This document shows, piece by piece, positions 1-53,932 of a DNA stretch of 64,000 bases. Origin of the DNA: an uncultured Candidatus Saccharibacteria bacterium (GTDB taxonomy: Bacteria; Patescibacteriota; Saccharimonadia; Saccharimonadales; Saccharimonadaceae); NCBI GenBank assembly GCA_963527005.1, contig CAURPQ010000003.1:12486-76485 (forward strand), given 5' to 3'. The notes under the pieces are model-generated. The model ran no database searches. It was not told where the DNA came from and saw only the letters and a program-made list of their open reading frames with translations. Each line of letters opens with the position of its first letter. Within the stretch, counting starts at the first letter, position 1. Made by a program: the position numbers and the translations under genes.

Positions 1-244
1 ACCGTCGTGTACCATCTTCCAAATCCGCTTCTTCACCATCAAGATCCAAAACATAGATCGACAACTCTCCTTTCGTTTGCACCAGAAAATCCCGTATCAG
101 CATCCGATTGCCAATCCCTTCAAGGACTACATTATGCGGCAGCACCGCGGCCTGATCTCTAATCTTTGCAGAATCTTTTTGCTCTAATCCAGCCAGAAAA
201 TCACCAGATAAAAAATCAGAAGCTTTTTGCGGTAACTTCTCCAT
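1..244 (-). CDS. Hypothetical orphan protein, 5' part (runs off window start)
   Basis: Manual translation MEKLPQKASDFLSGDFLAGLEQKD... is open to base 1; preceded by TGCTATACT-8nt-ATG. Confidence 0.7.
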   Translation of the reverse strand, partial: MEKLPQKASDFLSGDFLAGLEQKDSAKIRDQAAVLPHNVVLEGIGNRMLIRDFLVQTKGELSIYVLDLDGEEADLEDGTRR

Positions 245-248
245 ATTT

Positions 249-1460
249 TCATAGTATAGCATAACCGCTTCCTTGCCTTTCTGCTAATCGCCTGCGCCTA
301 CACTGGCGAGCTCTTTCGATATTAGTCAACTTATAACCGTCTTTGCTATACGGACGTACGATATTTGTTCCCGGAGGCATATACATCTCTCCTCTTGGTT
401 CAGATTTCTTTTCTCTACCTTCGGCGTGCCAAAGCATTCTCCGTATCAACTTCTCGAAATCGTAGTCAACAGAAGAATGAAACCCAGTGATATAAGCTCC
501 GTTCTTTGCTGTTTTAGAATCGTGTGCCGAGAAATACGCTCTAACGGGAATCTTCTTACCATCACCCATCAGCTCATCGACCGAAAGTCCATATTTTATT
601 CTTTGCTCATTAGCTACAATCAACTGCATTTCAATTTGATCTTCTATTTCGGGATATTGATCAACTAGCGAATGATAAACATCTCTAAGCTGCGAGCCGC
701 TAATAGTCCAATCATCCAGTAGCACAACTCGCAAATTTTCTTTTGGCATATTCGCAATATCATCTCGATCAACGATAATCCTATCACCGTATTCTTCCCA
801 ATCTTCTTCAGTAAAATTGGCTAGTATATTATCTAATAAATATTCATCGCTCTTTATCTGATTCTTATTAATTTTAATTTCTCCAGCGATAACACAAATT
901 TGTAAATCGGTATTTGCCTCAAGAGCTGCTTTCCAGCTGGCAGCGATACCAGCCGCTGCTTCTTTGTATTCTTTTTCGCCAATAAATGTCAAATTTTCGC
1001 GCATGGATTTAGCTTCATTTGCATATTTACCGTTTAGGGATGATTCTACATAGGCAAAAAACCCATCAAGCTGGCATAGCGTTTCGTATTCCGTTAATTC
1101 TGCCCTATCACCTCTATACAGATCATCTAATGTAAAAGTTTGTGGGATGCAGCATGTTCTGGGAGTATATGTGATAATATTACTCCTGTCTTCAGCCTTG
1201 CCTGCCAGCTGTTCATCTAAACGCGGAGCAACTTTGACCACTCCCTCTGATTCTAACCGCCAGTATACCTCTTCAGGGCTAATTTCATCGCTCGCTCCAG
1301 CAGGATGAATCTCGACTCCTGAAAACTTTACCGGAGTAAGGCTATATTTGTCGACATACGAACCAGTAGCCTCTATATCTAGCTCAGCATCCGAATCACT
1401 TTCAAGATTATCTTCGCTCTCTCCTGGCAGAAGAAATGTTGTCTCAAGACTTCTTCTCAT
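249..1460 (-). CDS. Orphan protein with phosphoribosyltransferase (PRTase)-like domain and acidic N-terminus
   Basis: Motif VVLLDDWTISGSQL resembles the PRPP-binding loop (hhhhDDhhxSGxT/Q); SD-like AAAGGT upstream. Confidence 0.6.
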   Translation of the reverse strand: MRRSLETTFLLPGESEDNLESDSDAELDIEATGSYVDKYSLTPVKFSGVEIHPAGASDEISPEEVYWRLESEGVVKVAPRLDEQLAGKAEDRSNIITYTPRTCCIPQTFTLDDLYRGDRAELTEYETLCQLDGFFAYVESSLNGKYANEAKSMRENLTFIGEKEYKEAAAGIAASWKAALEANTDLQICVIAGEIKINKNQIKSDEYLLDNILANFTEEDWEEYGDRIIVDRDDIANMPKENLRVVLLDDWTISGSQLRDVYHSLVDQYPEIEDQIEMQLIVANEQRIKYGLSVDELMGDGKKIPVRAYFSAHDSKTAKNGAYITGFHSSVDYDFEKLIRRMLWHAEGREKKSEPRGEMYMPPGTNIVRPYSKDGYKLTNIERARQCRRRRLAERQGSGYAIL

Positions 1461-1471
1461 AAAAATTACCT

Positions 1472-1897
1472 TTAGTCCTTGGATTTTCTACTAACTGCAA
1501 GCTCCTTCCAAATCCGCCCCAACGTGTTACAAGTATCAAGGTTCGCGTCTTGCACGGTAATCTCTTGCATGGTAGCCTCCTGCGGGTCATCTTCACCGGG
1601 AACAATTTTGTACACACGGCATTCGCCAATCCCTCCATTTTCACTAGCCTTGTATTCAATACGATACGTATCAAATTCATCTTCAGACAGATTACCATGA
1701 CTATCAAACCGAGCCAGATTAACATCCATAGAAGCGTCGTCGTCGCCCTGCGCAAAATAATACATCGCACTGGCTATAGCCGCGAAGTATCTCCTCGCAA
1801 ACGCTTCGTAATCGTCGGGATTTTCCCCGATTTCCTGCATAATCAGCTTCGCTTCTGAGACCAACCCGTCGCTACCACCACGTCCTTTTTCGTTCAT
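1472..1897 (-). CDS. Small acidic hypothetical protein
   Basis: 141-aa ORF; ATGA overlap with the upstream gene. Confidence 0.75.
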   Translation of the reverse strand: MNEKGRGGSDGLVSEAKLIMQEIGENPDDYEAFARRYFAAIASAMYYFAQGDDDASMDVNLARFDSHGNLSEDEFDTYRIEYKASENGGIGECRVYKIVPGEDDPQEATMQEITVQDANLDTCNTLGRIWKELAVSRKSKD

Positions 1898-3861
1898 TGT
1901 CTATCCGCTCCTTTCTCGTATACACACGTCCATCCATTCCAGGTCTCCGCCATTGTATGCGTTTCATTTATCCCCCCTTTATCCGTAGTCGCCATATTAA
2001 TATAACCTGTTTCATCTGCCAAGGGATACACTCCTCCATCTAATCCACTAACAACCCTAATCCACGGAAACGCCTTAGAAATCGCCGGCGCTGTACCTCT
2101 GCGCCGCTGAAATCCTTCGCCAAGCGTAAGAGGCTTAAATTTATCCTTTTCTCGCACAAGCGGATGACATGAATTTAGTACGATAGTATCTATTGCCAAA
2201 GCCGTAACGAGGTCGCGCAGACCCTTTCTGTTATACCACTCCTGAGAATCCGGCGGTATTTTTTCGCCATACGACATAGTAAACGCATCTTCGCCGCCAT
2301 GGCCAAACAAAATGACTGAATAAAACGTGCTACTATCAGCACCAGCTTCCTCTAGCTTTTTTACTATACCAGATAGCATGTTGGTATTGCTTATTTCAAC
2401 AGCAAACATATCAGTAGATTTTATGCTGCGAAATGCATGTGCAGCATCGTTGTGATCACCATTATCTCCCCTGATAATTATCGTTGCCGGTTCGCCAGAT
2501 TCTGTACGCCCAGTCTCTAATATATGCAGCGTGCCTCGCAAGACTTCTGGACTCCAGTCGGAAAAATGCGTTATCCCCAGCTCTTCGCCCAGCTTGTTGG
2601 CATTGTCTTGTCCAATCCCGCGGATAGTTTGGATATAATCGCAATATCTGTCCGCCTGCAGGTATATATCCTTAGAGGAGCATGAAGTAACTATGTTCGA
2701 AACACCGCAAAATATCATATCACGATCTAACTCTGGCAAACGTCCCTTGAAGTACTTCTGTATCAAATCGCACCGTTCGGAGACGTCAGGCTTCATCTTA
2801 CCATCATCACCGTAGATCTCTGTCTTTTTTATACAGTATTTGATGATCGCCCGATCAAGCCCCTTTTCCTTATCGCCCTGCTCGTTAACCAGCCGGCGCA
2901 GCGGCTCCGGGAAATCATCTCGATTTCTGGCGTCCTGCGGCCAGCGCTCCGGCGGAAAGCCATGATCTGCCAGCCAGGCTGCGTACTTATCGAATCCACG
3001 CCAACCCATTAAATCTGCAGCAGTCTCAATAGCCTCGGCCACCTCGCCAACAATTATGCCTTCAAATTCTTCAGCTATCTCCCCAGGCAATACTGCTTCG
3101 GCATTCATTAATTTAATTACAGCGCCCTCATGTACATAATCGTAGCCAAAATACTCGCCGCTGTCGCGTCTATCTTTGAGAGAACGTATTGAGCTAACCT
3201 GCTCCTGCATAGCACGCCGGGCACTATCTGCAAGTTTCGGCATATGCTCATAATGCTCTCTGAAAAACGCCGCAACATTCTTTTTTGCCAAATCCAGCAA
3301 AAAAGAATGTGTAAAATAATGGAAGTATTCTTTATCATTATTAAGTCTATCGTCATTCGCCAACAACTCTCTTACATTAGGCACTAGCTTCTCTATTTCT
3401 TCATAATCGCCCCGCGCGATACTTCCTGCGAAATCAGGAAAACTCTTAGGAGCAAAATTGCCGTTAAAGCCATCCACGTCAGCCCAAAATTCCCACTCTC
3501 CATCAATCTTATCAATTCTCTGCTGAGTCAATTCGTCAAGCTCTTCTTCAGCGCGAGAATACTCGTTTTCAGAATCGCCGCTTTCGTTATCTGCAGCCTC
3601 ATGATCCTCATCAGTACTACGCCAGCCAGTCCTTTTCATCAGCCGATACACTAGATCAACCACACCTCTCCCTATCCGCCGCAGACTGGACTTCCGTTCA
3701 TCATGGCTAGCCCCTGCCTCTAATAAAGGCATTCCATCAGACGCAGGAAGAAGCGCTGCTTTACCAAGGTCGCCAGCTTTATCCGACCCTGGCGCCAGCA
3801 GTCTATCGGCGCCAGGTACAGACCCATCTTTGTTAGCAGCGTTAATCAACTCTTCTGTCAT
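1894..3861 (-). CDS. Large orphan protein with C-terminal clan CD (caspase/CHAT-like) cysteine peptidase motifs
   Basis: VILFGHG ... IVLNSC His/Cys dyad pattern; acidic N-terminus. Confidence 0.55.
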   Translation of the reverse strand: MTEELINAANKDGSVPGADRLLAPGSDKAGDLGKAALLPASDGMPLLEAGASHDERKSSLRRIGRGVVDLVYRLMKRTGWRSTDEDHEAADNESGDSENEYSRAEEELDELTQQRIDKIDGEWEFWADVDGFNGNFAPKSFPDFAGSIARGDYEEIEKLVPNVRELLANDDRLNNDKEYFHYFTHSFLLDLAKKNVAAFFREHYEHMPKLADSARRAMQEQVSSIRSLKDRRDSGEYFGYDYVHEGAVIKLMNAEAVLPGEIAEEFEGIIVGEVAEAIETAADLMGWRGFDKYAAWLADHGFPPERWPQDARNRDDFPEPLRRLVNEQGDKEKGLDRAIIKYCIKKTEIYGDDGKMKPDVSERCDLIQKYFKGRLPELDRDMIFCGVSNIVTSCSSKDIYLQADRYCDYIQTIRGIGQDNANKLGEELGITHFSDWSPEVLRGTLHILETGRTESGEPATIIIRGDNGDHNDAAHAFRSIKSTDMFAVEISNTNMLSGIVKKLEEAGADSSTFYSVILFGHGGEDAFTMSYGEKIPPDSQEWYNRKGLRDLVTALAIDTIVLNSCHPLVREKDKFKPLTLGEGFQRRRGTAPAISKAFPWIRVVSGLDGGVYPLADETGYINMATTDKGGINETHTMAETWNGWTCVYEKGADRQ

Positions 3862-3887
3862 ATTTGTTTTAAATTATCAACTGTTAT

Positions 3888-3916
3888 AGTGTAGCACAAA
3901 ATATAAATAATGTCAA
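3888..3916 (-). promoter_or_regulatory. Sigma70 promoter TTGACA-N17-TACACT with extended TG
   Basis: Reverse complement reads TTGACAttatttatattttgtgcTACACT. Confidence 0.75.
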
Positions 3917-3976
3917 ATTCCGTATTAGCTCACGATCTCAGTAGCCCCAACCTTGCAGCCAAAAACCGACCGCGCC

Positions 3977-7629: not shown

Positions 7630-8148
7630 TTATTCTCGGTCGACTATAACTCTTCTACCTATCTTTTTATTTAATTGCCGCATCTGTGGAACTCCAAACA
7701 CCAAATCACTCGGATCGCTCAGATTGTCAATCTCCTCTCGCGACATGTCTAGCAGCCCCCCCAACGCTAAACTAGCCATATAAGCGGAGGCCGCGGTCTG
7801 TTGCGGCGTCAAATTTGACCTATCACGCATATTTAACAGCATACAAGCTACTTCTAATCGCCTCTCTCTCCTCGCACGAGAAAATCCTGCGGAAGAACCG
7901 CGTATTATCGCTTGAGAATACGCCATCTCGCCAGGTAACGGTATACAGCCAGCTGCTACATCCATTTTATGTAACAATACGCCATGAAACCCACAATCAC
8001 CCAGCCCCATCGTAACGCGTATTCCATCCTCCTTTGGCTCTATTTCAGTAACAACCCCTATAAATCCTAGGTCATCTCCAGGACGATCAAAAAAGAGCTT
8101 TGCGTCAGCTCGCACCACAGTAAGATCTGCTGAATACAACCTATTCAT
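7630..8148 (-). CDS. Orphan hypothetical protein (distant paralog of 12124-12704)
   Basis: 172-aa ORF; own promoter TTGACT-N17-TACAAC-6nt-ATG. Confidence 0.75.
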   Translation of the reverse strand: MNRLYSADLTVVRADAKLFFDRPGDDLGFIGVVTEIEPKEDGIRVTMGLGDCGFHGVLLHKMDVAAGCIPLPGEMAYSQAIIRGSSAGFSRARRERRLEVACMLLNMRDRSNLTPQQTAASAYMASLALGGLLDMSREEIDNLSDPSDLVFGVPQMRQLNKKIGRRVIVDRE

Positions 8149-8599: not shown

Positions 8600-10309
8600 T
8601 TAGTTAATTATACCACCCAAAGCCCGCCTAGCTAGATCACGGACACGCCTTAGCAGAATTCTACACCTGTCCGTCGCTTGTTCTTTGAAACGCGCCACGC
8701 GCTCGCTACTCTGATTTGTTAAGTGATATTCCTTTATACTATCATCAGGTTTTGTAAAATAATCTTGCTTACGCTGCCAAATATCAATTACCGCGTCAGC
8801 AGCCTCATCGCTTATACTCACCAAATCACCGTATATTTTCCGCAGCTTAAAGAAGAAGTGCGCTGCTTTCTTGCCAGTTCGCGCCACCAAGCGGGCATCC
8901 GGCGTCGAAAACTGCATTTCAAATGGCGCAAATGAGACCCTCCTATCACCTGTCTCATAAAAACCAGTAATCTTTGCATCAGTAAAGTCTCTACCACTGT
9001 CCTTAAAACTAAACATTCCCATATCAATATTCGGAACTCTCTCAAGGACTGCTTTACGAATAGTCTCCTGAAACTCCGGAGATCCTTTAACGACAAAACA
9101 TTCCTTTTCTCGACTGGGTGATGGATACGGACTAATACTCTTACCTTCCAGAGCATTAACTACCGCTTCTACGTACGATTCAGCCAATTGCTTATCATCC
9201 TCGGCAATTACCGTCATGCCATACATATCAATCGGATGAAATTCTCCCTCGTCCTTCAGCGGCTGAGAATGCGGCTCATAGTATCCGATAGCCCTTAGTA
9301 ACTTTCTAAGATACGAGCCTCGTCCTTTGCCGCGGGCTCGCACTTCCAGCTCAGTGCCATTCGACATCCTCACCGTACCCACTTCAAACAACGTACCGTG
9401 CGGCGAACCAGTTTCTACGGCAGACTTTAAATCCGGCTCACCAAGCAACTCAGAGAAAATCCCATTAATATTCTTCCTCGCAAAATCAAACCGCTTGGGG
9501 TCAACCGAATCCTTAGCGCCAAAATGCAGTGATATAACCCTGTCTACTTCGTCCAAAAGCGAATCAATATCATTACTCAAATCGCTACCATCCCTACCAT
9601 CGCCAATATTTCGTCCCGTAATGATGTCAACTTCATCATTCAGCTCAGATTCCAGATTATCAAGGCTAATAATGCTACATATTGGAATCAAAAAGTTTTT
9701 AGCAAATACCGCTTGTTTATAAACCGCCGCATCATGATAAGGAGTAGTCTTTAACTTAGCAAGCGTTACTGCACCGACAATCATTGCTGTTTCCAGCCCG
9801 ACGCCCTGGACGCCTTCGCCTTTCGTGGAAAATGTCTTGATCAAATCATCAATACGCGGCACCGGAATTGGCGGATTGTCTGACCACGGACTCTGAGAAC
9901 TGTCCTTTCCCAAATCATCAGGTATCTTCTGCCCATCCTCCAGCCGCAATGCCCTGCCTTGCAGTGTCGTCTCGTCAATCCCTTCAATATACGATTCAAA
10001 CAAACCTTGTAAGACTTTATAATCCTCCAGAATGCCGACCACCACGTCTCGATGCGCTTCATCAGTTATTGTCTCGTCGTTATCAAGCGCCGACATAATA
10101 TAGTCAATGCGATCGTCCTCTTCAATGTCCGCTGGCATTTCTATGATAAGCTTTGCCGCCAAGCGGCGCGCTGGCGTCATGTGATGACCGCTAAACGTCT
10201 CCGTCAAATTCATCGCAAGTTCTTCAGGATGGAAAAATATCTCACCTCTTCTGGGAGAGTAATCAGTACTTTCGGTCGCCCGTTCCGGTTGTTGCATATC
10301 GATTGCCAT
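8600..10309 (-). CDS. Divergent RelA/SpoT-like nucleotide pyrophosphokinase with acidic N-terminal extension
   Basis: RGKGRGSYLRK, IDMYGMTV and FEMQFST...G..AAHFFFK match Rel synthetase motifs; start set at MAIDMQ, downstream of TTGCAA-N17-TATAAT. Confidence 0.65.
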   Translation of the reverse strand: MAIDMQQPERATESTDYSPRRGEIFFHPEELAMNLTETFSGHHMTPARRLAAKLIIEMPADIEEDDRIDYIMSALDNDETITDEAHRDVVVGILEDYKVLQGLFESYIEGIDETTLQGRALRLEDGQKIPDDLGKDSSQSPWSDNPPIPVPRIDDLIKTFSTKGEGVQGVGLETAMIVGAVTLAKLKTTPYHDAAVYKQAVFAKNFLIPICSIISLDNLESELNDEVDIITGRNIGDGRDGSDLSNDIDSLLDEVDRVISLHFGAKDSVDPKRFDFARKNINGIFSELLGEPDLKSAVETGSPHGTLFEVGTVRMSNGTELEVRARGKGRGSYLRKLLRAIGYYEPHSQPLKDEGEFHPIDMYGMTVIAEDDKQLAESYVEAVVNALEGKSISPYPSPSREKECFVVKGSPEFQETIRKAVLERVPNIDMGMFSFKDSGRDFTDAKITGFYETGDRRVSFAPFEMQFSTPDARLVARTGKKAAHFFFKLRKIYGDLVSISDEAADAVIDIWQRKQDYFTKPDDSIKEYHLTNQSSERVARFKEQATDRCRILLRRVRDLARRALGGIIN

Positions 10310-12123: not shown

Positions 12124-12704
12124 TCACGTATCGTAAATTGAACACTTAAAGCCTGAACGAAGTCCGCGAATTTCTTCCGCCGATAATTCCAAAGCCTGCT
12201 CGCTGACTTGCATAAACTCATCCGAGGATATCGCTATAACTGCGGCAACCGCCACAGAGATAACACCGCTAGATATCAGCCTCGTCTCGCCTATCGTTAA
12301 TCTAGATCTTTCCCGCCTTTTTCTAAAACCGGAGAAACACCGATTTCAGTCTCCCTAGTCCATTCTCTATCCCTAGTCCATCCTCTAACTGAAAGAAGCT
12401 CATGAGAAAAATCTTCAGGCGTAGGAATAAGCGTATTTGAATGTATACGAGACACCTTTCGCCCTGTAGCGGCCTCTGCTAACCTCGAATGATAATCGTA
12501 ATCCTTCGTCCCCCCTACAGCAACAGACAAACCTACACATCCGCCTTCCAAATCTAATGAGACAAGACTCACCACGGCCAGCCGCTGCCGGCAATAATCA
12601 TCGTTCGCTTCCCTGTCAGCAATACTATATTCCTCACCTTTAGGAAAAAGAATAACTTTCACTCGCGCGCCGAGATCATCGACAGCAATATCACACTCTC
12701 TCAC
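12124..12704 (-). pseudogene. Frameshifted orphan gene, paralog of 7630-8148
   Basis: ORF 12297-12704 continues in another frame (RKRRERSRLTIGETRLISS...IYDT*) to 12124, matching the paralog's C-terminus. Confidence 0.6.
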
Positions 12705-15485: not shown

Positions 15486-16074
15486 TTAAGAATTTCTAAA
15501 TTTTAAGACATCCGGCGTATCTAATTTTTCAGCCTGGCGAGCCCGCACTTCAGCTGGGTGCGATAAAACTGTTCGTAAAAGCCAAAACTTCTGCTCCAGT
15601 CGCCATTAAAACAGCTCGGGAAGAACAATTCTCTATTCTTTCTCCGGCAGCACTGGCAAATTTTAATATAGCCGGCCGATTGTCTTCGTACAAAACACCA
15701 CCTTGCTCGTCAGCCATATGCTGCAGCTCATGGCGAGCGGTCTTTGCCGCATCCTTATCGCATCTAATTTTAATATAATGCCGTCCGTTTTGGTATTGAT
15801 AATATCCCGAACAACCGCTAGGTAATATTTCGCTGTGCTTTCTTGAGGCAAATACAATCTCGACTCCATCCATTTCTCATTCGTTCAGACCGACAGCAGC
15901 TGCCGTTTCATAAATCGCCTCAATGTCTGCATCGATAACTCCACCAGGCTCTAGAGTCTTCCCAACTGACGTTTCAAACGACACAAGCGGACCGCAACCT
16001 GGCAAATCGCTGCCACAAATACACGGCTGAGGCTCGCGCTCAATACCTTGCCAAACATCACAATTTTTTCGCAC
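15486..16074 (-). pseudogene. Degraded HExxH zinc metallopeptidase-like orphan gene
   Basis: GTG after TTGACG-N17-TATAAT; in-frame TGA at 15877; ARHELQH motif; out-of-frame tail PAEVRAR. Confidence 0.6.
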
Positions 16075-16909: not shown

Positions 16910-17302
16910 TTAGGACACGCGCATCTGCGAATGACGCTTCAGCCAATCAGCAATCGCATCAATATCAAGCCGATCAGTCGCGACGCGGACGGCGAAATTT
17001 TCTAGTTCAACAGCCGCCGCGGTCATTCTCCAGCCATTTCTCGCCAAAAAGATGCCAGTAATCGTCACCGCTGTGCGCTTATTGCCGTCGGTAAAGATAT
17101 GGTCTGCTATACAATTACGCAAATAAACCGCCGCCTTTTCATGAACTGGCATATATTGCTCCTCGCCAAAAACAACTGTTTGCGGCGCCGCCGCCAGCGA
17201 CTTTAGCCCCAGTTCATCGCGTACGCCATGCGAGCCACCAAAATCCTCAATTATCCAAAAATGCATCTCTAGAATTTCGTCAATCTCCAGATAGCGAATC
17301 AT
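16910..17302 (-). CDS. Fic/Doc family toxin
   Basis: HIFTDGNKRTA Doc motif. Confidence 0.92.
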   Translation of the reverse strand: MIRYLEIDEILEMHFWIIEDFGGSHGVRDELGLKSLAAAPQTVVFGEEQYMPVHEKAAVYLRNCIADHIFTDGNKRTAVTITGIFLARNGWRMTAAAVELENFAVRVATDRLDIDAIADWLKRHSQMRVS

Positions 17303-17526
17303 CGGTCTGCCAAGTTTTTCAGCGTTTCGCCGTACTGCTTTTTGAAATCATCATAATCCTGACGAAGCGACGGCTTATTTGCTTGCTCAATTGGCTTTAC
17401 CTGCTCAACAGTTAATCGCACCTCGTCGCCATCGCGAATCCCCAGCGCCCGCAAATCCCGCGCCGGCAGCGTCACGCCGCGGCTTGAACCAATCTTGATA
17501 ACTTTTTGAATTGTAGTGATTGTCAT
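17299..17526 (-). CDS. AbrB/MazE-family antitoxin
   Basis: KIGSSRGVTLP...LGIRDGDEV; ATGA overlap with the toxin. Confidence 0.9.
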   Translation of the reverse strand: MTITTIQKVIKIGSSRGVTLPARDLRALGIRDGDEVRLTVEQVKPIEQANKPSLRQDYDDFKKQYGETLKNLADR

Positions 17527-17532
17527 ACAAAC

Positions 17533-17561
17533 ATTATAACAAAATTATAATTTTATTGCAA
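17533..17561 (-). promoter_or_regulatory. TA promoter with palindromic operator
   Basis: TTGCAA-N17-TATAAT; perfect palindrome AAAATTATAATTTT at 17541-17554. Confidence 0.7.
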
Positions 17562-18189: not shown

Positions 18190-18807
18190 CTAATTGTGAT
18201 ACTCTTTTATTTCATGTTCATATTCAGTTAAAAGATTCTTTGAATAAATCTTTTTATTTCTTGAATTTCTAACTTCTTTCCAAAGAATAGCAGCTACTTT
18301 TAATTTGTTCGAATAGTTGCAACTATTTTTATCTGCACAGAAATCCTTTAAAAATTGATTCCATTGACAAACCGAATTATCATACTTGGCATAATCTGAT
18401 TTCCCATAATAAACTTTTAGCATATCTTGAATGGTAAAACTCAAATCATTTTCTCTCTTTACTTTTCTCCAAGCGGTAGCCATATCAGCAGTAAATTTAA
18501 ATGGTGAGATACCCGTTAAAGCAGAAAAATATTCTCTGAATTTTGCGTTAAAAGAAAAACCACATTCAAGTAATGGCGTATCTAAAGTAATATTTTCAAC
18601 TTGCTTTGTTTCATTTTTTATTGATGATTTTTTAATCAGGTTACCCTTAAAGTACTGCTCAATAATGTGATTGAGTTCTTGTTTTGTACCTCTATATTCT
18701 AATCCTAATGATTTGCATATCTGTGAAATTTCTTCACGATACCAATAATATTTATTAAACTCGTCAAACGATGTAATTTTATCAAACTCAGGTCTATTTT
18801 TTGTCAA
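18190..18807 (-). CDS. SAP-domain/DUF6434-like protein, AT-rich, probably horizontally acquired
   Basis: YWYREE...ICKSLGL...GTKQEL; markedly AT-rich; TTG start with SD AAGGAG. Confidence 0.75.
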   Translation of the reverse strand: MTKNRPEFDKITSFDEFNKYYWYREEISQICKSLGLEYRGTKQELNHIIEQYFKGNLIKKSSIKNETKQVENITLDTPLLECGFSFNAKFREYFSALTGISPFKFTADMATAWRKVKRENDLSFTIQDMLKVYYGKSDYAKYDNSVCQWNQFLKDFCADKNSCNYSNKLKVAAILWKEVRNSRNKKIYSKNLLTEYEHEIKEYHN

Positions 18808-26892: not shown

Positions 26893-27789
26893 TTAGTCTA
26901 GCGAAGAATTATCACCCTCTTTAGTTTGTTCGCGCCTGTCTTGATCCTGGCGTTTTTTTAGCTCTGCCACAAATCTAACCATTTCATCAACACGCTCTAA
27001 TAATCTTGATAAATAGCCCCTATCAACATTCGCCCCAGATCGTACATTTGCAATTTTCAGCTGGACTTCGTTAACCGAATTGCCAAGTAAAGCTATTTCT
27101 TTCTGCGAAGTAGCACTCTCAAGCACCTGAGCTGCATTGCCAACTTGATTAAGATTATCGCCAGCGAACGACAAACCTGCCTGAAAACCATCAAGCAACA
27201 CGCTTCCCGCTGTATCTATACTTTGCATAGCTTTTTCCAAACCCTCTCTCGCCGACTGCGCTGCCTGAAAGCAATTATCTATCAATTCCCTAAGTTTTTC
27301 GCTATTCATTTCCGGCTGCTGTTCATCGCCCTGCGTGTTTGCTTCTGGCTGATCATTAGATTCGCCTGTTTTTACCGCTTTTTCAGGCGGCTGAGAACTT
27401 GCATCTGGCGATTCTTTGCCTCCACCCCTTAACGCTGCTAATAAATTAGCGCGAGCTTCGTCTGGATCTTCTGGACTAGTAGTAGTCTCCTTTTTATCAG
27501 GTTGAAAGCCAGCCAGCCTCGCTCGTAACGCCTCCGCAGGCGACAATGTCCTTGGAGGGCCGGAACTGTCTTGTGATACAGCCTCCGATCTATCGTTTTC
27601 CGGAGCCGCCACGCCAGATGTCTCCAAAGCCAAATTTCCCATACGACCCGAAACTACATCCCCATCTTCCCGCAAAGATTCCAGATCAACCACCGTCAAG
27701 TCATCAACCTGAGATTCGCTTTCTGTTTCTGGTGTTTTTTGTTCTTGATAATCTCCAGCTATATAATGACCTGGAAACGCTTCTGTCAT
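26893..27789 (-). CDS. Orphan protein, acidic low-complexity N-half and coiled-coil C-half
   Basis: ORF from MTEAFP, 7 nt after TTGACT-N17-TATAAT. Confidence 0.75.
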   Translation of the reverse strand: MTEAFPGHYIAGDYQEQKTPETESESQVDDLTVVDLESLREDGDVVSGRMGNLALETSGVAAPENDRSEAVSQDSSGPPRTLSPAEALRARLAGFQPDKKETTTSPEDPDEARANLLAALRGGGKESPDASSQPPEKAVKTGESNDQPEANTQGDEQQPEMNSEKLRELIDNCFQAAQSAREGLEKAMQSIDTAGSVLLDGFQAGLSFAGDNLNQVGNAAQVLESATSQKEIALLGNSVNEVQLKIANVRSGANVDRGYLSRLLERVDEMVRFVAELKKRQDQDRREQTKEGDNSSLD

Positions 27790-27797
27790 AATGATAA

Positions 27798-27828
27798 TTA
27801 TAGCAAAACATAACCGAAAAGTCAACTA
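27798..27828 (-). repeat. 31-bp promoter repeat, copy 1
   Basis: TTATAGCAAAACATAACCGAAAAGTCAACTA; 29/31 identical to 29157-29187. Confidence 0.9.
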
Positions 27829-27860
27829 TAAAATAATAAAGATAAGATATAGCAAATACC

Positions 27861-29148
27861 CTACTCAGAAGAATCTTGTCTGCAACAACTAGCCAAAACA
27901 ACATGAGCAGCTTCTCTGTGTTGACCGCATATCGGAGTACCGTCCTTACGCGTGTCAGACTCCATATCATCCTCCGAATCGGGATCAAATGACCCGTCTA
28001 TCATTGATAAAGCTAATACCGCCGCATACTCAGAACTTGTCATTTTATCTGGATAGCCAGGATGGTTCGGATGTTTCAGATTACCAGGATCATTGTCTCT
28101 AACTCGCTCTGGCAAGTCGTCTGATGATGATTTCCGTATAGATTTAAGTTTTCTCCCGAAAAACTCCAGCAACCGGCAGCGCAGTAGATGATTCTTCCGA
28201 ATCTCATTTATCGTCTTCTTAAATCCGTCAAAACCAGTCTCAACGTCGTAAGGAGCATACTCATCAATGATACTCTTTATATTAGTACCTGCCAGACCTT
28301 TAAGCCAGTTAATGGAACTATAAAAACCCTTTATTGAAACTTTATCCCTACCCTTTATACCTTCGGATAATTGTCGCCGTGCATATGTCTGGCGTGCTTG
28401 CTCGCGCTGTTCGTCTGTCGCTGTAGGGCTTAGTATAACGTCCCATAACTCTCGCAAGTTTTTACTTTCCCTTTTTTGAGCTTGCATCGGAGGCTCGTTA
28501 AATCTATTACCATCAATATCCGTTCCAAGCGGCTGCGCCAGAAACTGCATTCTTTCAGAAAAGTCGTCTAGCTCATTTCGCTCTGGCGTCAAGCTTCGTT
28601 CTTGGCTGCTTGGCGGTACATAATGCCGCAAACTACCCCATCCGCCAGAATCGCCCTGATATTCTGGACTCTCATAAGAAACCACTGTGCCGTATTTTGA
28701 AGTGTCCTTTATCGTTAGAGTTCCATTCTCGTCAGTAGAGATTATGTAAATGCTGGCGAGACACAGACGTATTGCTATACAAATTAGGAAACCTATCATG
28801 ACCCCTGCCTATAACAATCTGATCATCTGACCTGATGCCCTTGATACCTGTAACATCCGCCGGATCGCTTAAATCGTGATGCTCGTCTGATGCAACAATA
28901 TAAGCACATGTTGGATCAATTATACAACCATCATAAGTACGCTGGCCATTTGCCTCAGGCAACTCGCTAACCTTATATATGGATAGCGTAGCTGGTTTCG
29001 CTCCTGTCCCCTCAGGATGTTTATCTCTAGCTCCTCCTAATGATAACGCAATTTTTGCTGGCGCCTCTTCAACAGGAAAAGACACCTCTTGACCGCGCGA
29101 AAGTGATTCTTCAATAATTACTTTCTCTTCTGGTCTATTCTGCTCCAT
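27861..29148 (-). pseudogene. FHA-domain orphan protein split by one frameshift
   Basis: IVIGR...VSRQH (28732-29148 frame) joins ...LTIKDTSKYGT (27861-28799 frame) to complete an FHA motif. Confidence 0.7.
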
Positions 29149-34955: not shown

Positions 34956-36243
34956 TTACCGAATAATACTATAGCCCATGCTGGATCTTGCCCGATCTTG
35001 CTGCGACCACGCATCTACGATAATCGGCCGCACCTGCTCATACCACGATCTAATAGACTCTGCCTTCTCTGAGCTAAGACTTTCTACCGCATTTTCAACC
35101 ATACGATCTGTAGTATATTGACTAAGCTGCTCATCTCTTCTATCGCCAGAATTAGCCCCTGCCCTAAATCCATTGATCCCCGGTGCTGATCTAATTTTAC
35201 CTTCTTGAACCCTACGAGCAATACCGGACCGATTTAGAGAAAGCCTGCTCTCATAGTCATCATACCCTTCAAAGTACTCTATCCTATCAAATTCACCGTT
35301 TTCATCAAAATAAGCAGTTGGTGTCCGGCGGGCAACATCGACTGTATGATAATCCTTCAAAATCTGCTCTGCCTCGGCTTCAGTCACATCTCCTGTATGC
35401 AAAGCAAACTCAATTACGGCTGTAAATACTTTTGGCGAGGGGAAAGACTTAATCAGAGTATCTCCATCAACGGCACGAAAATTTAATTTTTCATTCGATC
35501 CCGACATATAATAACACCTACCATCAAAAAACACCTTTAGCTCTTCTTCCCCGCCACACTCCGCAGACATAGATCTAACAACTTTATCTTCAGCGTAGGG
35601 ATTTTGTTTTTCACTAGGAATCTCAACGACAGGAAGGCTCATTCTGTATCCGAGACTATGTATAGCTTTTGCCAGGTCAGCATCAATGGGATTTTTTCGA
35701 GAATTTACTTTATAGAAAAATCCAACAGCTTTTAGCCCGCTTTGACCAAGGGCTACAATTTCGTTATACATACCAGGCGAACTACGCTCAAGTATCTCAT
35801 CTGGCGACAAAATCCCCATAGACTGCCCTTTGGCTATAAGATGGTCTCTGTGGCTATTCGGTGCGCCAGCATCAGTCGGTGAAGTAAGTACAACACTTGA
35901 CTCAGGGGCAACCACGATAATGCCAGCACCCCCCCCATGTGGCAGTATGGTCCTGATCTATCAGCGACATGCTTAAAGAAACCCTCTCATCAACTCTCTC
36001 TGGTTCTTTAAATACATTAATCGATTGATCACCTGCCTCATCAGCAACAATCCCTTTGTCCTGCGTTACCAACTGGATAAAAAGCGCACCAATACGAGCA
36101 TGGGGATTAAAAGCATGTACCAAATAACGAAAGTCCTCAGGATTATGCCTGCAAGGATCGGTTGTCTGACCCCAATAAGCAAGCTCAGCTTTGCTAGCGT
36201 TAGTGACCTCTTGGTTAGCTGCTTCCAGTAATTCAAATGACAT
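34956..36243 (-). pseudogene. Orphan gene split at a G8 tract; ADP-ribosyltransferase-like motifs
   Basis: Removing one G at 35929-35936 fuses 35902-36243 with 34956-35915 (TATWGGAGIIVVAPE); YLVH...SMS...NEIV. Confidence 0.6.
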
Positions 36244-37712: not shown

Positions 37713-38372
37713 ATGAGTGAATATTTTACACCCCAACCAAGAGAAGACTTAACCAGCGAACAAGGTCCGATGACCTCAGAACCAGAATATAAACAAGAAC
37801 AATCGCCTACCAGGCTTATTAATTACCTGTGCGGGACATCTGACGGTAATATTGTGGCTGTTGTTAGAAATCCTAATATCAAAGAACCAAGCAGCTACAG
37901 AGAAGAACACGATGTTTACATCGGAACAGTAACCAACGGATTATACAAGGCTGAAATCACTAAATTCAGACGCTTTAGCGATGGAGGTACAACCAACATA
38001 GCCGTTCAGCGCACCTCGCCAGATGGCACAAAAGAAGATATAAGACTTCATTTTCCACACCCAGACGATCCTTTCAAAAGAGGGATACCGTACAAACCAG
38101 TTGAAGGTAAACAGCCAAGATTTAACGGCAAAAACATGACCGTACTTAACGAAAGAGAATGGACTGCAGTAGCCGACAAAGAAACTGGCACATTACAATT
38201 ACATGAAAATCCAGCTGCCAAAAATACAGAACCAGAACAGCCTAATCCAGCACAGCCAGCTTCTCCTGAAGCCGCAGTAGCAGATCTCTGTCGCCAGAGC
38301 TCACGCCAGCGAGGACGCGGACTTCTGAGTCGAGGAATTCTCTGGCTACTTGAATTATCTTCTCGGCGGTAA
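37713..38372 (+). CDS. Orphan protein with acidic/Pro-rich N-terminus and basic C-terminus
   Basis: TTGACC-N17-TATAAT-7nt-ATG; 3' end overlaps the convergent M16 gene. Confidence 0.72.
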   Translation: MSEYFTPQPREDLTSEQGPMTSEPEYKQEQSPTRLINYLCGTSDGNIVAVVRNPNIKEPSSYREEHDVYIGTVTNGLYKAEITKFRRFSDGGTTNIAVQRTSPDGTKEDIRLHFPHPDDPFKRGIPYKPVEGKQPRFNGKNMTVLNEREWTAVADKETGTLQLHENPAAKNTEPEQPNPAQPASPEAAVADLCRQSSRQRGRGLLSRGILWLLELSSRR

Positions 38373-45293: not shown

Positions 45294-46625
45294 TCATTCA
45301 AATATTGTTTTGGTAGATTCAGCATCAATGTGCATATTTTCCGGTATACCCTCTTCGTAATATGAACGCGCCGGTCCGTTCACGTTAACGTTAATACTAG
45401 CTGGCGCATATATCTTAAAGTTGGCTAACGTGCTAAACACCCGGCAGCCGCCAAAGAACATCGTTCGCGGACATTCTTCATCGACGGACAATATTAGCCG
45501 GTCGCCGTCGCGGCGAGCTTTGATAGTCGGTTTTTTGACGCTTGGCAAGTTCAGATAACTAGCTTCGACTCGCAGCTTGTCGGAATCCGTGCGAACCACG
45601 CTGCCCATTGCGCCTTCAATTACAATTGATTTAACGCCGTTTGTATCCGGCATTCTAACGTCCATTTTCCTAGTCAAGTGTTGCGTTTCATAAGAAAATT
45701 CCGAGCCAGTCTGCATGCCAAAAACCCCAGCACCCGCCATACTCATAGAAATAACAATCGTTGCTGTAATCATCGCGATCATCGACACGCGGTTCATCGT
45801 CCACGTAAATACACTGCGCGCCAGCACCATTCCCAGCACTACCGCCGCGATGCCGCCAATCGCCAGCGAGAACCATAGTCCCCACGCCCACATTTGCGCA
45901 CTCAAACCATCAAGCAAATTAACTAACGAAATGCCAAACACCCCGCCAACAATCAGCCCAAACAACACAGTCAGAGTCATCAAGAAAATTAGCGCGCCGG
46001 CAGAGTAGCGGAAAATCTTAGCAACAACCATTGCCCCGCCGCCATCAGCTATTGCCGAAGTTTTATCAGCTGCCGTTCTTTTTAATGACGCCAAGGTCAC
46101 CGGCTCGCCGCGCATCCGTAACTTGTCCGACGCCGTTCGTGCTGGCGGCATTGACAGCCACATCACAACATAAATCAGTACCGCTGTACCAAACGTCATA
46201 AACGGCGAAATAATGGCAATTAACCGCACCCACAGCGGATTGATGTTAAAATACGCCGCCACGCCCGCACATACGCCACCGATAATCGCGTTATCTGGAT
46301 CGCGCATCAATTGTTTCGCTGGCTTATCATCAATATCTTTATCTTCTATATCATCAATCGCCTCGCTGGCATCATCCGAAAAATCGCGCGGCTCGCCCAT
46401 TTGTTTCTGCACCGCCAAAACGTCATCGTGGCTAATGACACCGTCCTTCGACACGCCGCGCTCCGCCAAAAGCTCCACCATTCGCGCCTCAATTTCCCGC
46501 ATAGCTTCTGGCTCGGCGTGCATGTTTTTCTGGATTAAATTCAGGTATTTTTCCAATGATTTTTTAGCATCAACCTCCACGCTAAATGGCGTTTTTGCCA
46601 AATGGATTCTGGTTATTTCTTTCAT
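45294..46625 (-). CDS. PspC-domain membrane protein
   Basis: LMRDPDNAIIGGVCAGVAAYF; EIEARMVELL N-domain. Confidence 0.88.
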   Translation of the reverse strand: MKEITRIHLAKTPFSVEVDAKKSLEKYLNLIQKNMHAEPEAMREIEARMVELLAERGVSKDGVISHDDVLAVQKQMGEPRDFSDDASEAIDDIEDKDIDDKPAKQLMRDPDNAIIGGVCAGVAAYFNINPLWVRLIAIISPFMTFGTAVLIYVVMWLSMPPARTASDKLRMRGEPVTLASLKRTAADKTSAIADGGGAMVVAKIFRYSAGALIFLMTLTVLFGLIVGGVFGISLVNLLDGLSAQMWAWGLWFSLAIGGIAAVVLGMVLARSVFTWTMNRVSMIAMITATIVISMSMAGAGVFGMQTGSEFSYETQHLTRKMDVRMPDTNGVKSIVIEGAMGSVVRTDSDKLRVEASYLNLPSVKKPTIKARRDGDRLILSVDEECPRTMFFGGCRVFSTLANFKIYAPASINVNVNGPARSYYEEGIPENMHIDAESTKTIFE

Positions 46626-47657: not shown

Positions 47658-47667
47658 GATATTTCTC

Positions 47668-49064: not shown

Positions 49065-49655
49065 CTACCCCTTAGATTTCTTCGATTTTTTAGTTTTCTT
49101 CTTTTTAGATTTATTCTTCGGCTTTACCAGCTTGGCGGCACTATAATCTATATAATCTTCGTCTATTACATCTGCCATATACATCGCTGCATCATAAAAC
49201 ATTGGATCGCCCCATACGGCAATATCTCCATTTTCATCATAGTCAACAACCGCCGCAATTATCACTTGATGTTGTCTACTATCAAGCTCTTCCCACGCCT
49301 CTTCTTGGTCCGTAAAATCAATTTCTTTCGCTCTATCGACAATGTCAAATCGCCCATTATACCATCGGCAATCTGCCACGATTCCCTGCTGCAACTCTCC
49401 TTTGTCATTTCGCACCCACACGCTCGTAAATATGACCGTTTCGTCATCTGACGGATCAGCCACCTCAAGCGGCTTTACCGGCTGCCGCGCATCAACAGCC
49501 AATCTATCCTGTGCCTTATCAATATACATCACCTCTTGCGGCTCAACAAACGACTCAATATCGAGTTCGCATGGCGTTTCAACTGGCAACGTCTCAATCG
49601 TTATTTGCCGCAACCGCTCAGGCACACCGCCAGTTTCATAATTCTTATTAGACAC
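49065..49655 (-). CDS. Acidic hypothetical protein with Lys-rich tail
   Basis: 196-aa ORF; GTG start with SD GAGGGAG. Confidence 0.7.
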   Translation of the reverse strand: MSNKNYETGGVPERLRQITIETLPVETPCELDIESFVEPQEVMYIDKAQDRLAVDARQPVKPLEVADPSDDETVIFTSVWVRNDKGELQQGIVADCRWYNGRFDIVDRAKEIDFTDQEEAWEELDSRQHQVIIAAVVDYDENGDIAVWGDPMFYDAAMYMADVIDEDYIDYSAAKLVKPKNKSKKKKTKKSKKSKG

Positions 49656-50682: not shown

Positions 50683-50684
50683 GG

Positions 50685-52438
50685 TTACCAGCCGCCGCCT
50701 CCGCCGCCGCCTCCGCCTCCGCCAACGAAGCCGCCGCCAGTTGAGCCGCCAGAGGTCGAAGAGTAATCACTGGCACTACTAGCCACGCTTGACAAGCTGT
50801 TCATTCCAGCCGCAAATGCCGCCGCATTAAACGCACCCTGGCCGCTGTACCAATCCGGCTGCTCGCCAGCCTGCTCATAGTACTTACCCAGCTGCGCACT
50901 CCACTCTTTTTCCTGCCCAAACAACACCGCGTACGGTAATACCCGCTCATACAACTTCACCAGCTGTTTCTCATCAGCCGTATCAATCTTCACTTTTTCC
51001 GCGCCCTCAGGACTCTGAAGCATTTGTAAACGCTCGACCTCAGCCGCACCAATATACATCTTTAACCCTGACAAATACCGTCTGAGCGCCAAACCCTCAT
51101 CAGTCAGCGACCAACCAAACGATAATGAAAATAACATTGCTGCCACTGCCAGTAAAAGCGGCGACAGCAGCAATACACCAATAATACCAATCTCCAGCGC
51201 CCATCTTTGTACGGCTCGTTTATTAGCTGGCTTTTGCTCGCACAAACCATATTTGCCGCATACCAAATTCTTCAAATTCCTATCATCATCGCGTGTCCGT
51301 GCCGCATATGACACACTATTCTGCAGTTTTTCAGATTTAGCCGCTGGCCTGGATTTGGCATCGACGAGCCAAACATATCCCTAACAACCTCAGACTCTTC
51401 AGGCCTCAGCTCTTTCAAATCTTTAACAATTTCAATTTCGTACTGCGCCGACCGCAAAAATGACGCTTTCTTCACTTCATATAACTTGATATAGTGCCGC
51501 ACCGCCAAGTCCAGCATCTGAGCTACCTTTGCCGAACCCTTAACCATCAAGGCGTCATATTTCTTCAGGATATACGCTGAAGCCAGCACGCTCGCTTGAT
51601 TCGGCGGTAGATATTCTGGCGGAATTGGCTTTAGTTCATTTTTCCTACCAAACAACCGCCGATATCGCCAACTGCACCAGATCATCAAAATAACCGCCAA
51701 AATACTTGCTGGTATCTGTACCATTGCCCAAATTTTTATCAGTCTTTCAATCAACGACTCCTGATATCCAGCAAACGTACCGCTATTAAAACCGACCGCC
51801 ATCGTCACACCTTCCCGGCGATTCAGCCGGCTCACATTCGTAACAGTCTCACCCTTATCACCACTGACATTGCACCGTTTAGTTGAGCCGTACCTGCCGA
51901 CATAACAGAATAGTTCGCCGCGCTGCGCTGCCTGAAGCGACCGGTCAATTTTCATTGAGACTCGCACATTTTCCATTGGTACGCGCCATTCATTACCGAT
52001 GACGTCCCAGTAAAACTCATCGCGACCCGTATCTTTATAATGCTTGGTCACGTCGCGCTGGGTAAACTTGATGATATAGGTTTTTTCACCTCTGACGTAG
52101 GTGTCCTTATCACCAATCCGCAGCTCATTACCATTCCAAGAATGCTTCAGCGACGTGCCCTGCTCATCAGTCACCGACTTTATAGAAAAACTCGTTGGAT
52201 GCCCATCATAATTTTTCACAAATATCGGCGCGATACCGTGATTTTGATTCGGCGGAAAATTAGCAGTAATTCGCCACGTCGCCGCCAAAGTTGAACGATT
52301 CTCGCCGTCGCGGCCCAATGAATATTCCGCATCAAACTTGGTAATCGTAAAATTATCCGTCTGCGCCGCAAACGCCGACTGGCCAGATCCAATCAACAGA
52401 GATCCAGCGATTAGTATCCCCAATATAAGTCGCTTCAT
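50685..52438 (-). pseudogene. DUF2207-family membrane protein split at an A5 run
   Basis: One extra A at 51327-51331 joins both ORFs (LKKLQNSVSYAAR); YERVLPYAVLFG; Gly-rich GGGGGW end. Confidence 0.75.
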
Positions 52439-52536
52439 ACGCCTATTATACCAGGAAAAATCTTAAAAGAAGCAACAATTTACCTTACCCCAACCTGTTA
52501 AATCGTAAAAACATCATATTATGGTATAATAAAAAA

Positions 52537-53932
52537 ATGCGTTATAAAACGACTACCAGAATCCCGTTCGAGTTGCCTTCCTCTAGTAAACAAGACCTCT
52601 CAGATGCACCCAAGGACAGTACTGAGGCTGCTGTTGCTTTCTATACCGACAAGCGTGCTAGCAATACGCTACCCTCAGATATATACCCTTACCGACTTTG
52701 ACGAATTAAAACGTTACATACAGGTACGAAGCGACTATATGCAGAAACAAATTCGCTCCAACCAAGAAAAAATTGAGCCAATTAGCAAACAACCTGCCAA
52801 CACTGGCATGACGATTTGTGTACCGGTAGCAATTCGGCACGAAACACCAGAAACGATTGAGCGGCTAATGAAGCAATTAACGGCAGCAAGTGCTGGCGTT
52901 GAAAATGGTATCCACGTCGTTGTTTGGGCGAACGCCAAAGCCACGCCCTCCCAAAAACAATTTACGCAAAAACAGTGTAAACCGCTATACGACCGCTTGC
53001 GTCAACAATTCACGAGCTTCAACTCAGATGCGATGACAATTAGCACGGCATTTGAAGTTATCTGCACCGACGGCTTTATTATGAATGTCGTTCGTAATAA
53101 TTTCATGGAGGCTGTCATCGCGCGACTCATGGATGGCGAGATCGACATTGACCACCCTATATTATGGCTTGATGCCGACACAACTCGCATCCGTCCCAAC
53201 ACGCTACGAACGGTTCAACAAGATATCAAAAAGCATCCTTTCGGATTTTGCCATCCCGACATTGATTATTCGCTGGAATGGCTTGAAGGGATTCGTCCGC
53301 AAGATTGGGACGCATACAGTAAGCTTTTGTTTGTGGACGAAATGGCACGACGCGCTTTCAGAAGAGTGGCTTGCCAGCGGTTTAGCTCTGAAAATTCAAT
53401 CGAAGATCGAATTTATGCGGAAGAAAGCGGACTGGCATTTCCTCTTTCTACATATCTGGCATCGGGCGGTCTTTATCCAGAAGACTTAATGGGTGAAAGT
53501 TCTCATTTACGACGACGCTATATGAGATATGGAGCAAAATTTCTTAGAGAACTATATAGACCAGAGATAACTAACCCGCATCTGGATGATATACGGTGGC
53601 TAGATACCCCAGGTATCGGTATCGAAACTTCAGCTCGCCGCGTTCATCACGCCCTACATAAACAGCCTATCGGAAGTACTACTTTTAGTCGTGCACAAGA
53701 CGCCAATTATACCTTATCAACAGAGCAAGAAGAATTTTTACATGATCAAGCGCCTAACACCGACAGAATAGAAACCCTAGCTCGCATTATTCTCACAAGA
53801 AAACGAGGCGTCGCAGATAAAGAATTGCAGCAGGACGCTAGAAAACGCGTCGAAAGGATGCTTAGAAACCGCGCTCTCGGTTTTAACCTGCCAGAAGAAT
53901 TCTTTAAGAATATCTCAACTTATGAAGACTAA
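52537..53932 (+). pseudogene. GT-A fold glycosyltransferase-like orphan; leaderless start at 52537 is out of frame with the main ORF 52604-53932
   Basis: TGGTATAAT-6nt-ATG at 52537 stops at 52701; main frame has ICVPVA, ILWLDADT (DxD) and ETSARR; the gene may instead be intact from an internal start. Confidence 0.55.

Follow-up and report, generated by a model that had tools for sequence, protein, structure and literature searches.

Strain-variable orphan genes dispersed through a Saccharibacteria housekeeping region include candidate effectors

The stretch of DNA analysed here (the window; 64,000 nucleotides, positions 12,486 to 76,485 of contig CAURPQ010000003.1 in assembly GCA_963527005.1, or G000:C3:12486-76485) is a Saccharibacteria housekeeping region from an uncultured bacterium whose genome, G000, is a 604-kb bin that is 67% complete. 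An earlier note on this DNA had listed 13 orphan genes scattered among the core genes and proposed that they encode proteins delivered into or onto the bacterial host. We named these genes O1 to O13 by their order along the window. All 13 genes are genuine and together make up a class, and our results support the view that this pool contains strong effector candidates. That all 13 belong to one system is unproven, and that a subset of them constitutes a host-directed effector pool is close to an even chance, a little on the doubtful side. Papers are cited below by identifier. The genes are as follows.

O1: 1..244, minus strand; 5' part of a 213-amino-acid (aa) soluble helical orphan that continues past the window edge
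O2: 249..1460, minus strand; possible type I phosphoribosyltransferase (PRTase)-like protein of 403 aa, phosphoribosyl pyrophosphate (PRPP)-loop D249-D250-W251
O3: 1472..1897, minus strand; acidic product of 141 aa, the partner of O4 and predicted to inhibit it (as an immunity protein or a chaperone)
O4: 1894..3861, minus strand; 655 aa, with a disordered N-terminal 105 aa, a helical middle and a predicted C-terminal clan CD cysteine protease domain (about residues 456-650; His521 and Cys565)
O5: 7630..8148, minus strand; 172-aa orphan between rnhA and a kwaB-like gene, its -35 box overlapping the last codons of rnhA
O6: 8600..10309, minus strand; divergent protein of putative HD and RelA/SpoT-like layout
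O7: 12124..12704, minus strand; orphan of about 195 aa, broken in G000, its -35 box containing the stop codon of the upstream NUDIX gene
O8: 15486..16074, minus strand; HELQH (HExxH) protein, a pseudogene in G000 (internal stop, 3' part lost) and 217 aa when intact in G010
O9: 26893..27789, minus strand; long, acidic, low-complexity N-terminal half and coiled-coil C-terminal half
O10: 27861..29148, minus strand; FHA domain and a C-terminal domain ending in G-x-H-R, in the rr2-rpmA slot, with a frameshift near 28742 in G000
O11: 34956..36243, minus strand; possible ADP-ribosyltransferase (ART)-like N-terminal domain (His, S-x-S, N-E) and a C-terminal domain, with a frameshift in G000 near 35929, within an 8-base run
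O12: 37713..38372, plus strand; Pro/Glu-rich orphan between murD and an M16 peptidase gene, its last 43 codons forming an antisense overlap with the peptidase gene on the opposite strand
O13: 52537..53932, plus strand; candidate GT-A-like protein in which D-A-D follows a hydrophobic strand, with a length of 465 aa in intact form, in the DUF2207-lysS slot, with a frameshift near 52683 in G000
Further class member, missed by the earlier note: 49065..49655, minus strand; 196-aa acidic orphan, 42% identical to its G003 counterpart

The orphan genes as a class

Open reading frames (ORFs) were found at all 13 places, and the orphan status of their products was borne out: in a scan of 72 window proteins none of the 13 had a Pfam family above cut-off, no credible NCBIfam match was obtained for any of them, and Pfam, NCBIfam and PDB sequence searches returned nothing for the window copies or their profiles. 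They are AT-richer, as had been claimed, with a GC content of 0.451 as against 0.497 (p 3e-6) and a GC content at third codon positions (GC3) of 0.38 as against 0.56 (p 1e-7) in the 49 Pfam-positive window genes used for comparison (GC3 of the further member is 0.44). The acidic, Pro-rich N-termini that had been described are likewise evident, since the share of Asp, Glu and Pro in the first 40 residues is 0.26, compared with 0.14 in 55 other window proteins (p 3e-6). There is no paralogy among the 13.

Other features were borne out in part. The absence of a Sec signal or membrane anchor, which we judged by hydropathy, holds for 12 of the 13 proteins, in which the mean hydropathy of every 19-residue window stays below 1.6 (intact copies from relatives standing in for broken G000 copies), but intact O8 has a C-terminal membrane segment. 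The Arg-rich C-termini are seen in the last 30 residues when Arg is counted by itself (0.127 as against 0.070, p 0.027; 10 genes, excluding O12) but not for Lys and Arg together (p 0.26). As 56 similar genes outside the window have no such excess, the Arg-rich tail was rejected as a general signal. Instead of being inserted one by one, the genes occupy nine slots: seven hold single genes, one holds a pair (26893-29148) and one holds the quartet O4-O3-O2-O1 (1-3861), which lies between pif1 and the mraZ/dcw operon with O1 last. Five of the 13 (O7, O8, O10, O11 and O13) are broken in G000, and all five are intact in relatives. The catalytic motifs had been called degenerate; in intact copies they are mostly conserved.

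To gauge the size of the class, 617 ORFs were called, of which 166 outside the window had a GC3 below 0.46 and at most one membrane segment (three more spanned locus borders). After 16 recognisable genes were dropped, 150 were scanned; 86 of these have no Pfam family, and 56 of the 86 are soluble. The 56-gene set is an upper bound on the class because prophage, defence-island and some spurious ORFs are included. Outside the window the class is densest at G000:C6:17000-25700, where about nine soluble, low-GC3 genes with no Pfam family follow one another, three of them with -35 promoters.

Protease O4 and its partner O3

The structural model of O4 supports its assignment as a clan CD cysteine protease, as the earlier note had proposed: the fold is of the caspase-hemoglobinase type, successive strands are followed by His-Gly and by Cys, and the His and Cys are invariant. 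Its nearest folds are secreted-effector and toxin proteases. [quoted passage not shown] Tce1 itself is described as having no obvious immunity gene (PMC13323088).

O3 stands directly behind O4 in 17 of the 19 genomes that carry O4. A model of the O3-O4 complex scored 0.72, compared with 0.00 for the best control, and its interface includes O4 residues 521-523 and 565, among them the predicted catalytic dyad. Of three runs (0.72, 0.01 and 0.75) one failed; contact agreement was at least 0% and partner pLDDT (a model confidence measure) at least 66. The score mark applied is reached by 116 of 157 solved complexes and by 2 of 215 mismatched pairs. O3 is a predicted inhibitor that would lie over the O4 active site.

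Two related low-GC3 orphans are located near rpsB (window 63745-64000 and G000:C3:77459-78190). Their homologues follow O4 paralogues in G178 and G228, at the place that in other genomes belongs to O3.

The Rel-like protein O6 and the FHA protein O10

The Rel synthetase assignment of O6 stands in part. A second Rel-like protein beside the housekeeping Rel is supported by conserved synthetase-like R-x-K, D-x-x-G and E-x-Q motifs in six homologues (judged by eye) and by ESM Atlas neighbours that carry RelA_SpoT and HD_4 (features 0.96 to a cluster with 15% RelA_SpoT), but the window copy is not detected by PF04607 and the G006 copy (E 0.003) falls under the cut-off. A canonical Rel (HD-SYNTH-TGS) is encoded separately from O6 at the gapA-ppa locus in five of five relatives, and also separately in S. 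epibionticum; the idea that O6 is a vertically inherited housekeeping Rel was rejected because of the gapA-ppa copies. O6 shares with RelA/SpoT homologues a putative HD plus synthetase layout, synthetase-like motifs and the status of an extra copy, and differs from them in falling below Pfam detection, in lacking a TGS domain and an adjacent antitoxin, and in the loss of the HD motif in its own allele class; its activity is putative. Such homologues include small alarmone synthetases that are toxic, and also Tas1, which is a T6SS effector.

The FHA assignment of O10 was upheld. Intact homologues match PF00498 with G-R and S-x-x-H at 22.5-29.9 bits (cut-off 20.7), which supports O10 as an FHA protein, and in G000 the domain is split by the frameshift. 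O10 is the only FHA protein in five of five near-complete carrier genomes, and none of these five has a Pkinase over the Pfam cut-off. Hosts are reported to sense epibionts via threonine phosphorylation of an FHA protein and to fight back with Esx (PMC13622651).

Weaker enzyme candidates: O2, O8, O11 and O13

The proposed PRTase identity of O2 is weakly supported: the PRPP-loop DDW is invariant in an alignment of seven sequences, but the match of the G003 homologue to PRTase-CE (PF24390; E 1e-5, 26.1 bits) is below the cut-off of 27, and no PDB sequence match was found. O11 may be ART-like, again with weak support. Its residues S92, S94, N161 and E162 are at least 90% conserved in 122 sequences, and a model of an intact homologue (pLDDT 91.9) gave as its highest-probability Foldseek matches 8htf (probability 0.77, E 0.06) and 8htd (probability 0.72, E 0.09). 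These are effector-ubiquitin complexes, which we take to contain CteC of Chromobacterium violaceum. O11 resembles these ADP-ribosyltransferase effectors in this weak structural match and in its conserved S-x-S and acidic catalytic-loop positions, and is unlike them in that N-E replaces the usual E-x-E and that none of the 122 members has a Pfam family. The O11 domain occurs as a solo insert across Patescibacteria and also within proteins of 1,100-2,500 aa, one of them from a cluster named Omnitrophota. S. epibionticum is listed as having an ART-family gene that is neither core nor essential.

For the remaining two enzyme claims the motifs are the evidence. O13 is a GT-A-like (glycosyltransferase) candidate on the basis of D213-A214-D215, invariant in 14 sequences, but there is no Pfam or PDB sequence match. 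O8 is an HExxH metallopeptidase candidate, the motif being present in G000 and G010, but a family match for the intact copy is lacking.

Separately, a low-GC3 orphan of 288 aa in a prfA-adjacent slot of G010 (G010:C4:28316-29182, L007:2316-3182) has His, S-T-S and E-L-R motifs and no Pfam family, and is an ART-like candidate.

Distribution, evolution and slot dynamics

The earlier note had claimed a variable, scattered repertoire, and the patchy presence, fast evolution and dispersal of the genes confirm this. Core gene order is constant in five relatives while slot content varies. Genus-wide presence was counted for eight of the genes among 112 congeners: O12 is full length in 2 (8 more match its overlap part only), O7 is in 4, O13 in 8 (all at the DUF2207-lysS slot), O11 in 14, O4 in 19, O10-related sequences in 34, O2 in 56 (in three different slots among 24 loci plus G003) and O6 in 78, with allele classes of about 97, 79, 64, 59 and 24% identity. 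The O6 query found nothing in 120 genomes of other genera in the order. Given this spread, from 2 to 78 congeners out of 112, they cannot be taken for conserved housekeeping genes. O5 is found in G010 (99%) and G020 (31%), and its slot lacks it in G003, G004 and G006. The O7 reading frame is open in G226 and G228.

Ratios of nonsynonymous to synonymous substitution (dN/dS) were calculated against G010, which is about 93% identical to G000 at the nucleotide level; O13 was saturated, and O7, O11 and the C-terminal part of O10 were not measurable. The median for 11 orphan segments is 0.32 (range 0.11-0.62; O1 0.30, O9 0.48, O12 0.62), compared with 0.067 for 48 other genes (p 4e-6). As dN/dS is below 1 in all 11 segments, the orphans are real but fast-evolving proteins under purifying selection.

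Genes in these slots are exchanged as well as lost. In the O13 flank, G195 is 78-84% identical to G000 upstream but 95-98% identical across O13, while G010 is 89-95% identical upstream but at most 74% identical in O13; because identities differ in this way between flank and gene, the O13 allele has moved sideways between species. G010 keeps 3' remnants only of O7 (together with the promoter of the next gene) and of the 49065-49655 gene, which indicates that loss by deletion also occurs. Breakage is common, affecting O11 in 4 of 14 genomes and O13 in 3 of 8. The rr2-rpmA slot is a domain-shuffling locus: 23 of 24 fetched loci lie at it, and in these a shared C-terminal domain is combined with FHA or other N-terminal domains and with linkers that vary in length. 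Alignments of slot junctions contained no target-site duplications or mobile-element ends, although no dedicated repeat search was run. A phage origin was rejected, as no O10 or O11 relative was found in viral contigs. Among 13 distant loci that differ greatly in base composition, counted after two wrongly picked rows had been dropped, O11 has a lower GC3 than the genes beside it in 10, which is evidence against one AT-rich donor. The recombination hotspots, or 'genomic islets', of naturally transformable bacteria are similar to O1-O13 in their fixed core-flanked slots, in having no integrase or repeats seen and in interspecies allele replacement; this concept concerns how genes move and not what they do.

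Several neighbouring observations concern slots. Most relatives have hpt, and often murI, between murD and prfB (for example G010:C7:4501-5687); in G000, O11 is located there, and no match to hpt or murI was found in the 67% complete assembly. The DUF2207 gene beside O13 (window 50685-52438) is split by a 1-nucleotide indel near 51326 and is likewise split in the G010 and G195 loci. G010 has a second class of slot gene (L003:13281-15162, L003:19540-20000, L007:6908-7705) with low GC3, an N-terminal membrane anchor and an acidic extracellular domain; these are possibly variable surface proteins.

Promoters

The earlier note had given most of the orphans a promoter of their own. A -10 box does not distinguish them, since 17 of 36 other window genes also have one, but a TTG-type -35 box located 17 nucleotides before the -10 box sets them apart, being present in 9 of the 13 orphans and in none of the 36 other window genes; this rule was fixed only after inspection of the window. 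The promoters of O9 and O10 are near-identical, and at O5, O7 and O11 the -35 box reaches into the final part of the core gene upstream. In many housekeeping genes an extended -10 box stands 6-10 nucleotides before the start codon (e.g. upstream of 12099, 30833 and 37629), with no -35 box or Shine-Dalgarno sequence, which suggests that near-leaderless transcripts are the genome default.

Possible delivery route

Dispersed effector repertoires of type IV secretion systems (T4SSs) have been described for the Dot/Icm systems of Legionella and Coxiella and for the antibacterial X-T4SS of Xanthomonas. Like O1-O13, these consist of unrelated, lineage-specific, lower-GC, non-essential genes located away from a conserved T4SS; they are modular, and some have a cognate inhibitor. 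O1-O13 differ in that no E-block, XVIPCD or other shared signal was found, in their setting of a monoderm FATA-type T4SS, in that the target would be the Gram-positive host of an epibiont, and in being predicted effectors.

The T4SS-like apparatus that the earlier note had suggested looking for is present as an intact cluster at G000:C2:77203-96847, beside dnaN/dnaA, in which a VirB4-type ATPase over cut-off (G000:C2:88360-90210) is clustered with pilin-like, PrgI-like and peptidoglycan hydrolase genes. According to the literature, the Saccharibacteria T4SS is essential for epibiotic growth (PMC10633639) and has no relaxase in most genomes (10.1101/2025.01.22.634366). Both the role of the Patescibacteria T4SS and its cargo are called completely unknown in PMC11665869. 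Effector proposals have so far concerned small genes with signal peptides that lie within the T4SS cluster itself, including six 'putative effectors' of the TM7x_00090-00100 region (PMC7427843, 10.1101/2022.03.25.485537, PMC12592800). The underlying idea of host-altering T4SS cargo is the same, but those genes are small, signal-peptide-bearing, conserved and in the T4SS cluster, whereas O1-O13 are soluble, variable, enzyme-like and dispersed; genes of the TM7x_00090-00100 type are also described as pilin-like (PMC10633639, 10.1101/2025.01.22.634366). In the open-licence papers searched, which leave most subscription papers and bioRxiv supplements outside coverage, we found no report of a dispersed, enzyme-like effector set in Saccharibacteria.

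Proposed model and alternative explanations

The explanation we favour is that this oral-type Saccharibacteria lineage maintains a polymorphic pool of soluble proteins whose genes are scattered over fixed gaps in the housekeeping gene order. A unit would consist of a promoter with a -35 box and one gene or a short run of genes, lying between the upstream stop codon and the downstream promoter. Comparison of relatives shows that units are gained, swapped and lost through homologous recombination in the flanks and through deletion, and natural competence would be the route of uptake, to judge from PMC10633639. A subset, comprising at least O4, O6, O10 and O11 and probably O2 and O13, would be enzymes or binding modules whose substrates are found in the cytoplasm (protein, ATP/GTP, NAD, PRPP, nucleotide sugar, phospho-threonine). 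As the proteins have no signal peptide, one-step transfer through the conserved T4SS would be their most likely exit route, with the unfolded acidic N-terminal arm perhaps serving as the handle. In the Actinobacterial host they might re-tune the stringent response, nucleotide pools, NAD and phospho-signalling; O10 could act as a decoy for the host phospho-threonine alarm pathway, and O3, as modelled, would keep the O4 protease blocked inside the producer. Fast turnover and frequent breakage might then reflect changing hosts and host defences. In its fullest form, this model envisages a large, strain-variable, Legionella-like arsenal, perhaps several dozen proteins per genome, injected into bacterial hosts via the essential T4SS, marked by a -35 promoter class and disordered acidic leaders, counting among its members an ART, an alarmone synthetase, a protease accompanied by its own inhibitor and an FHA protein that decoys the pathway by which the host senses epibionts, and setting host range by its content; we consider this fullest form somewhat unlikely.

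A number of observations weigh against the effector model. The 13 orphans are not linked to the T4SS locus, an unbiased search among them yielded no shared secretion motif that survives 7,523 tests, and, there being no paralogy, they share no secretion domain. Outside the window, G-x-x-A, a motif picked by hand, shows a weak enrichment of about 2-fold (14 as against 6.3 when shuffled), and in the O11 family it is not enriched (13 as against 21.4). Acidic/Pro N-termini are enriched in the class, with no discrete motif or domain; N-terminal P-E, a motif chosen by eye, occurs in 9 of 56 as against 3 of 172 proteins outside the window. A -35 rule similar to that of the window is also weaker outside it, holding for 6 of 56 Pfam-less soluble low-GC3 genes and 9 of 220 high-GC3 genes (p 0.09), or 6 of 16 and 9 of 72 when only genes with any promoter are counted (p 0.026). 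O1, O5, O7, O9 and O12 have no evidence of enzyme function, the number of such genes among the 13 being four to six, five orphans are broken in G000, and the structural match of O11 is weak. A 483-aa atypical kinase in three of the five FHA carriers could supply a ligand for O10 at home. Tce1, the fold neighbour of O4, did not slow E. coli growth (PMC13323088).

Some of the same genes could instead act inside the epibiont, as toxin-antitoxin, abortive-infection or stress modules (an alarmone synthetase that is toxic, a protease and inhibitor, PRTase-CE, an ART that consumes NAD) with the turnover of other defence genes. For the Rel-like gene, the PRTase and the pair of protease and inhibitor, this account and the effector model fit to a similar degree: a protease beside its inhibitor is also a toxin-antitoxin or defence layout, SAVED-CHAT is the second-best fold for O4, and PRTase-CE accompanies type III retrons (PMC13712802). 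We nevertheless regard self-acting modules as rather improbable, given that in the loci examined O6, O11 and O13 are solitary genes that lack a small partner, that no sensor domain was found, that the orphans are not clustered with the restriction, reverse transcriptase and DUF genes of the defence-rich C4 region or represented, as regards O10 and O11, in viral contigs, and that the long disordered acidic arms are left unexplained. The slots might also be an ordinary flexible-gene compartment, in which recombination hotspots of a naturally competent bacterium gather unrelated accessory genes that serve no joint function and whose shared features stem from low expression, relaxed selection and foreign origin. 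Plain genes do occupy the same slots, among them hpt, murI, a glycoside hydrolase gene and genes for membrane-anchored proteins; of the 150 low-GC3 genes scanned outside the window, 64 belong to ordinary Pfam families, NUDIX and restriction enzymes for instance; and oral G1 genomes are known to gain and lose single genes within a syntenic backbone (PMC7427843). Such a mixture does not explain the concentration of effector-type folds, the FHA protein with no canonical kinase, the several allele classes of the second Rel, or why promoter form and N-terminal composition are shared, and the low GC3 of O11 in distant loci is at odds with a single AT-rich donor, so that this account, too, seems unlikely to us. 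Decaying remnants or assembly artefacts with no present function are a very improbable source of the class. G000 has broken copies of five of the 13, in one case at a run of 8 bases, the DUF2207 gene is also frameshifted and the bin is 67% complete, but the dN/dS values, invariant catalytic residues, intact copies of all five in relatives and confident folds largely refute decay for the families. Effector, self-acting, flexible-mix and decay explanations can coexist among the 13 genes.

Three elements are new: O3 modelled over the O4 active site, FHA carriers with no Pkinase over cut-off, and the -35 box class. With a set of enzyme-like candidates in hand that are dispersed and vary between strains, for which catalytic residues and, in one case, an inhibitor are predicted, the question of T4SS cargo can be put directly to the test, since genetic tools now exist for this group. 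Should the effector model prove true, it would account for the killing of hosts and for host ranges that differ between strains across a very large radiation of bacteria. The analysis also supplies several uncharacterised enzyme families, among them that of O11 (667 clusters at 50% identity, no Pfam family).

Other features

Some further loci were recorded in passing. A Fic/Doc toxin gene with a small upstream partner, which we take to be AbrB-like, lies at window 16910-17560 and is likely a toxin-antitoxin pair. At G000:C4:37373-38690, in an AT-rich, defence-like region, a helix-turn-helix gene stands with a reverse transcriptase gene (RVT_1), possibly a retron or related system. The SAP_new25 gene at window 18190-18807 is clearly foreign in composition (GC 0.28, GC3 0.22), yet 89-99% identical in four relatives; an apparent gap at this gene in G010 was discarded because it falls at a contig break. 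A PspC-domain membrane protein (window 45294-46625) is hypervariable, being 51-59% identical to its counterparts in all five relatives, while its neighbours are over 90% identical in G010. A 684-aa collagen-like repeat protein with an N-terminal membrane anchor is inserted near serS in G006 (G006:C1:219906-221960). Finally, a short stretch within a methyltransferase gene (window, about 25825-25910) recurs elsewhere in the genomes of relatives, which suggests a small dispersed repeat.

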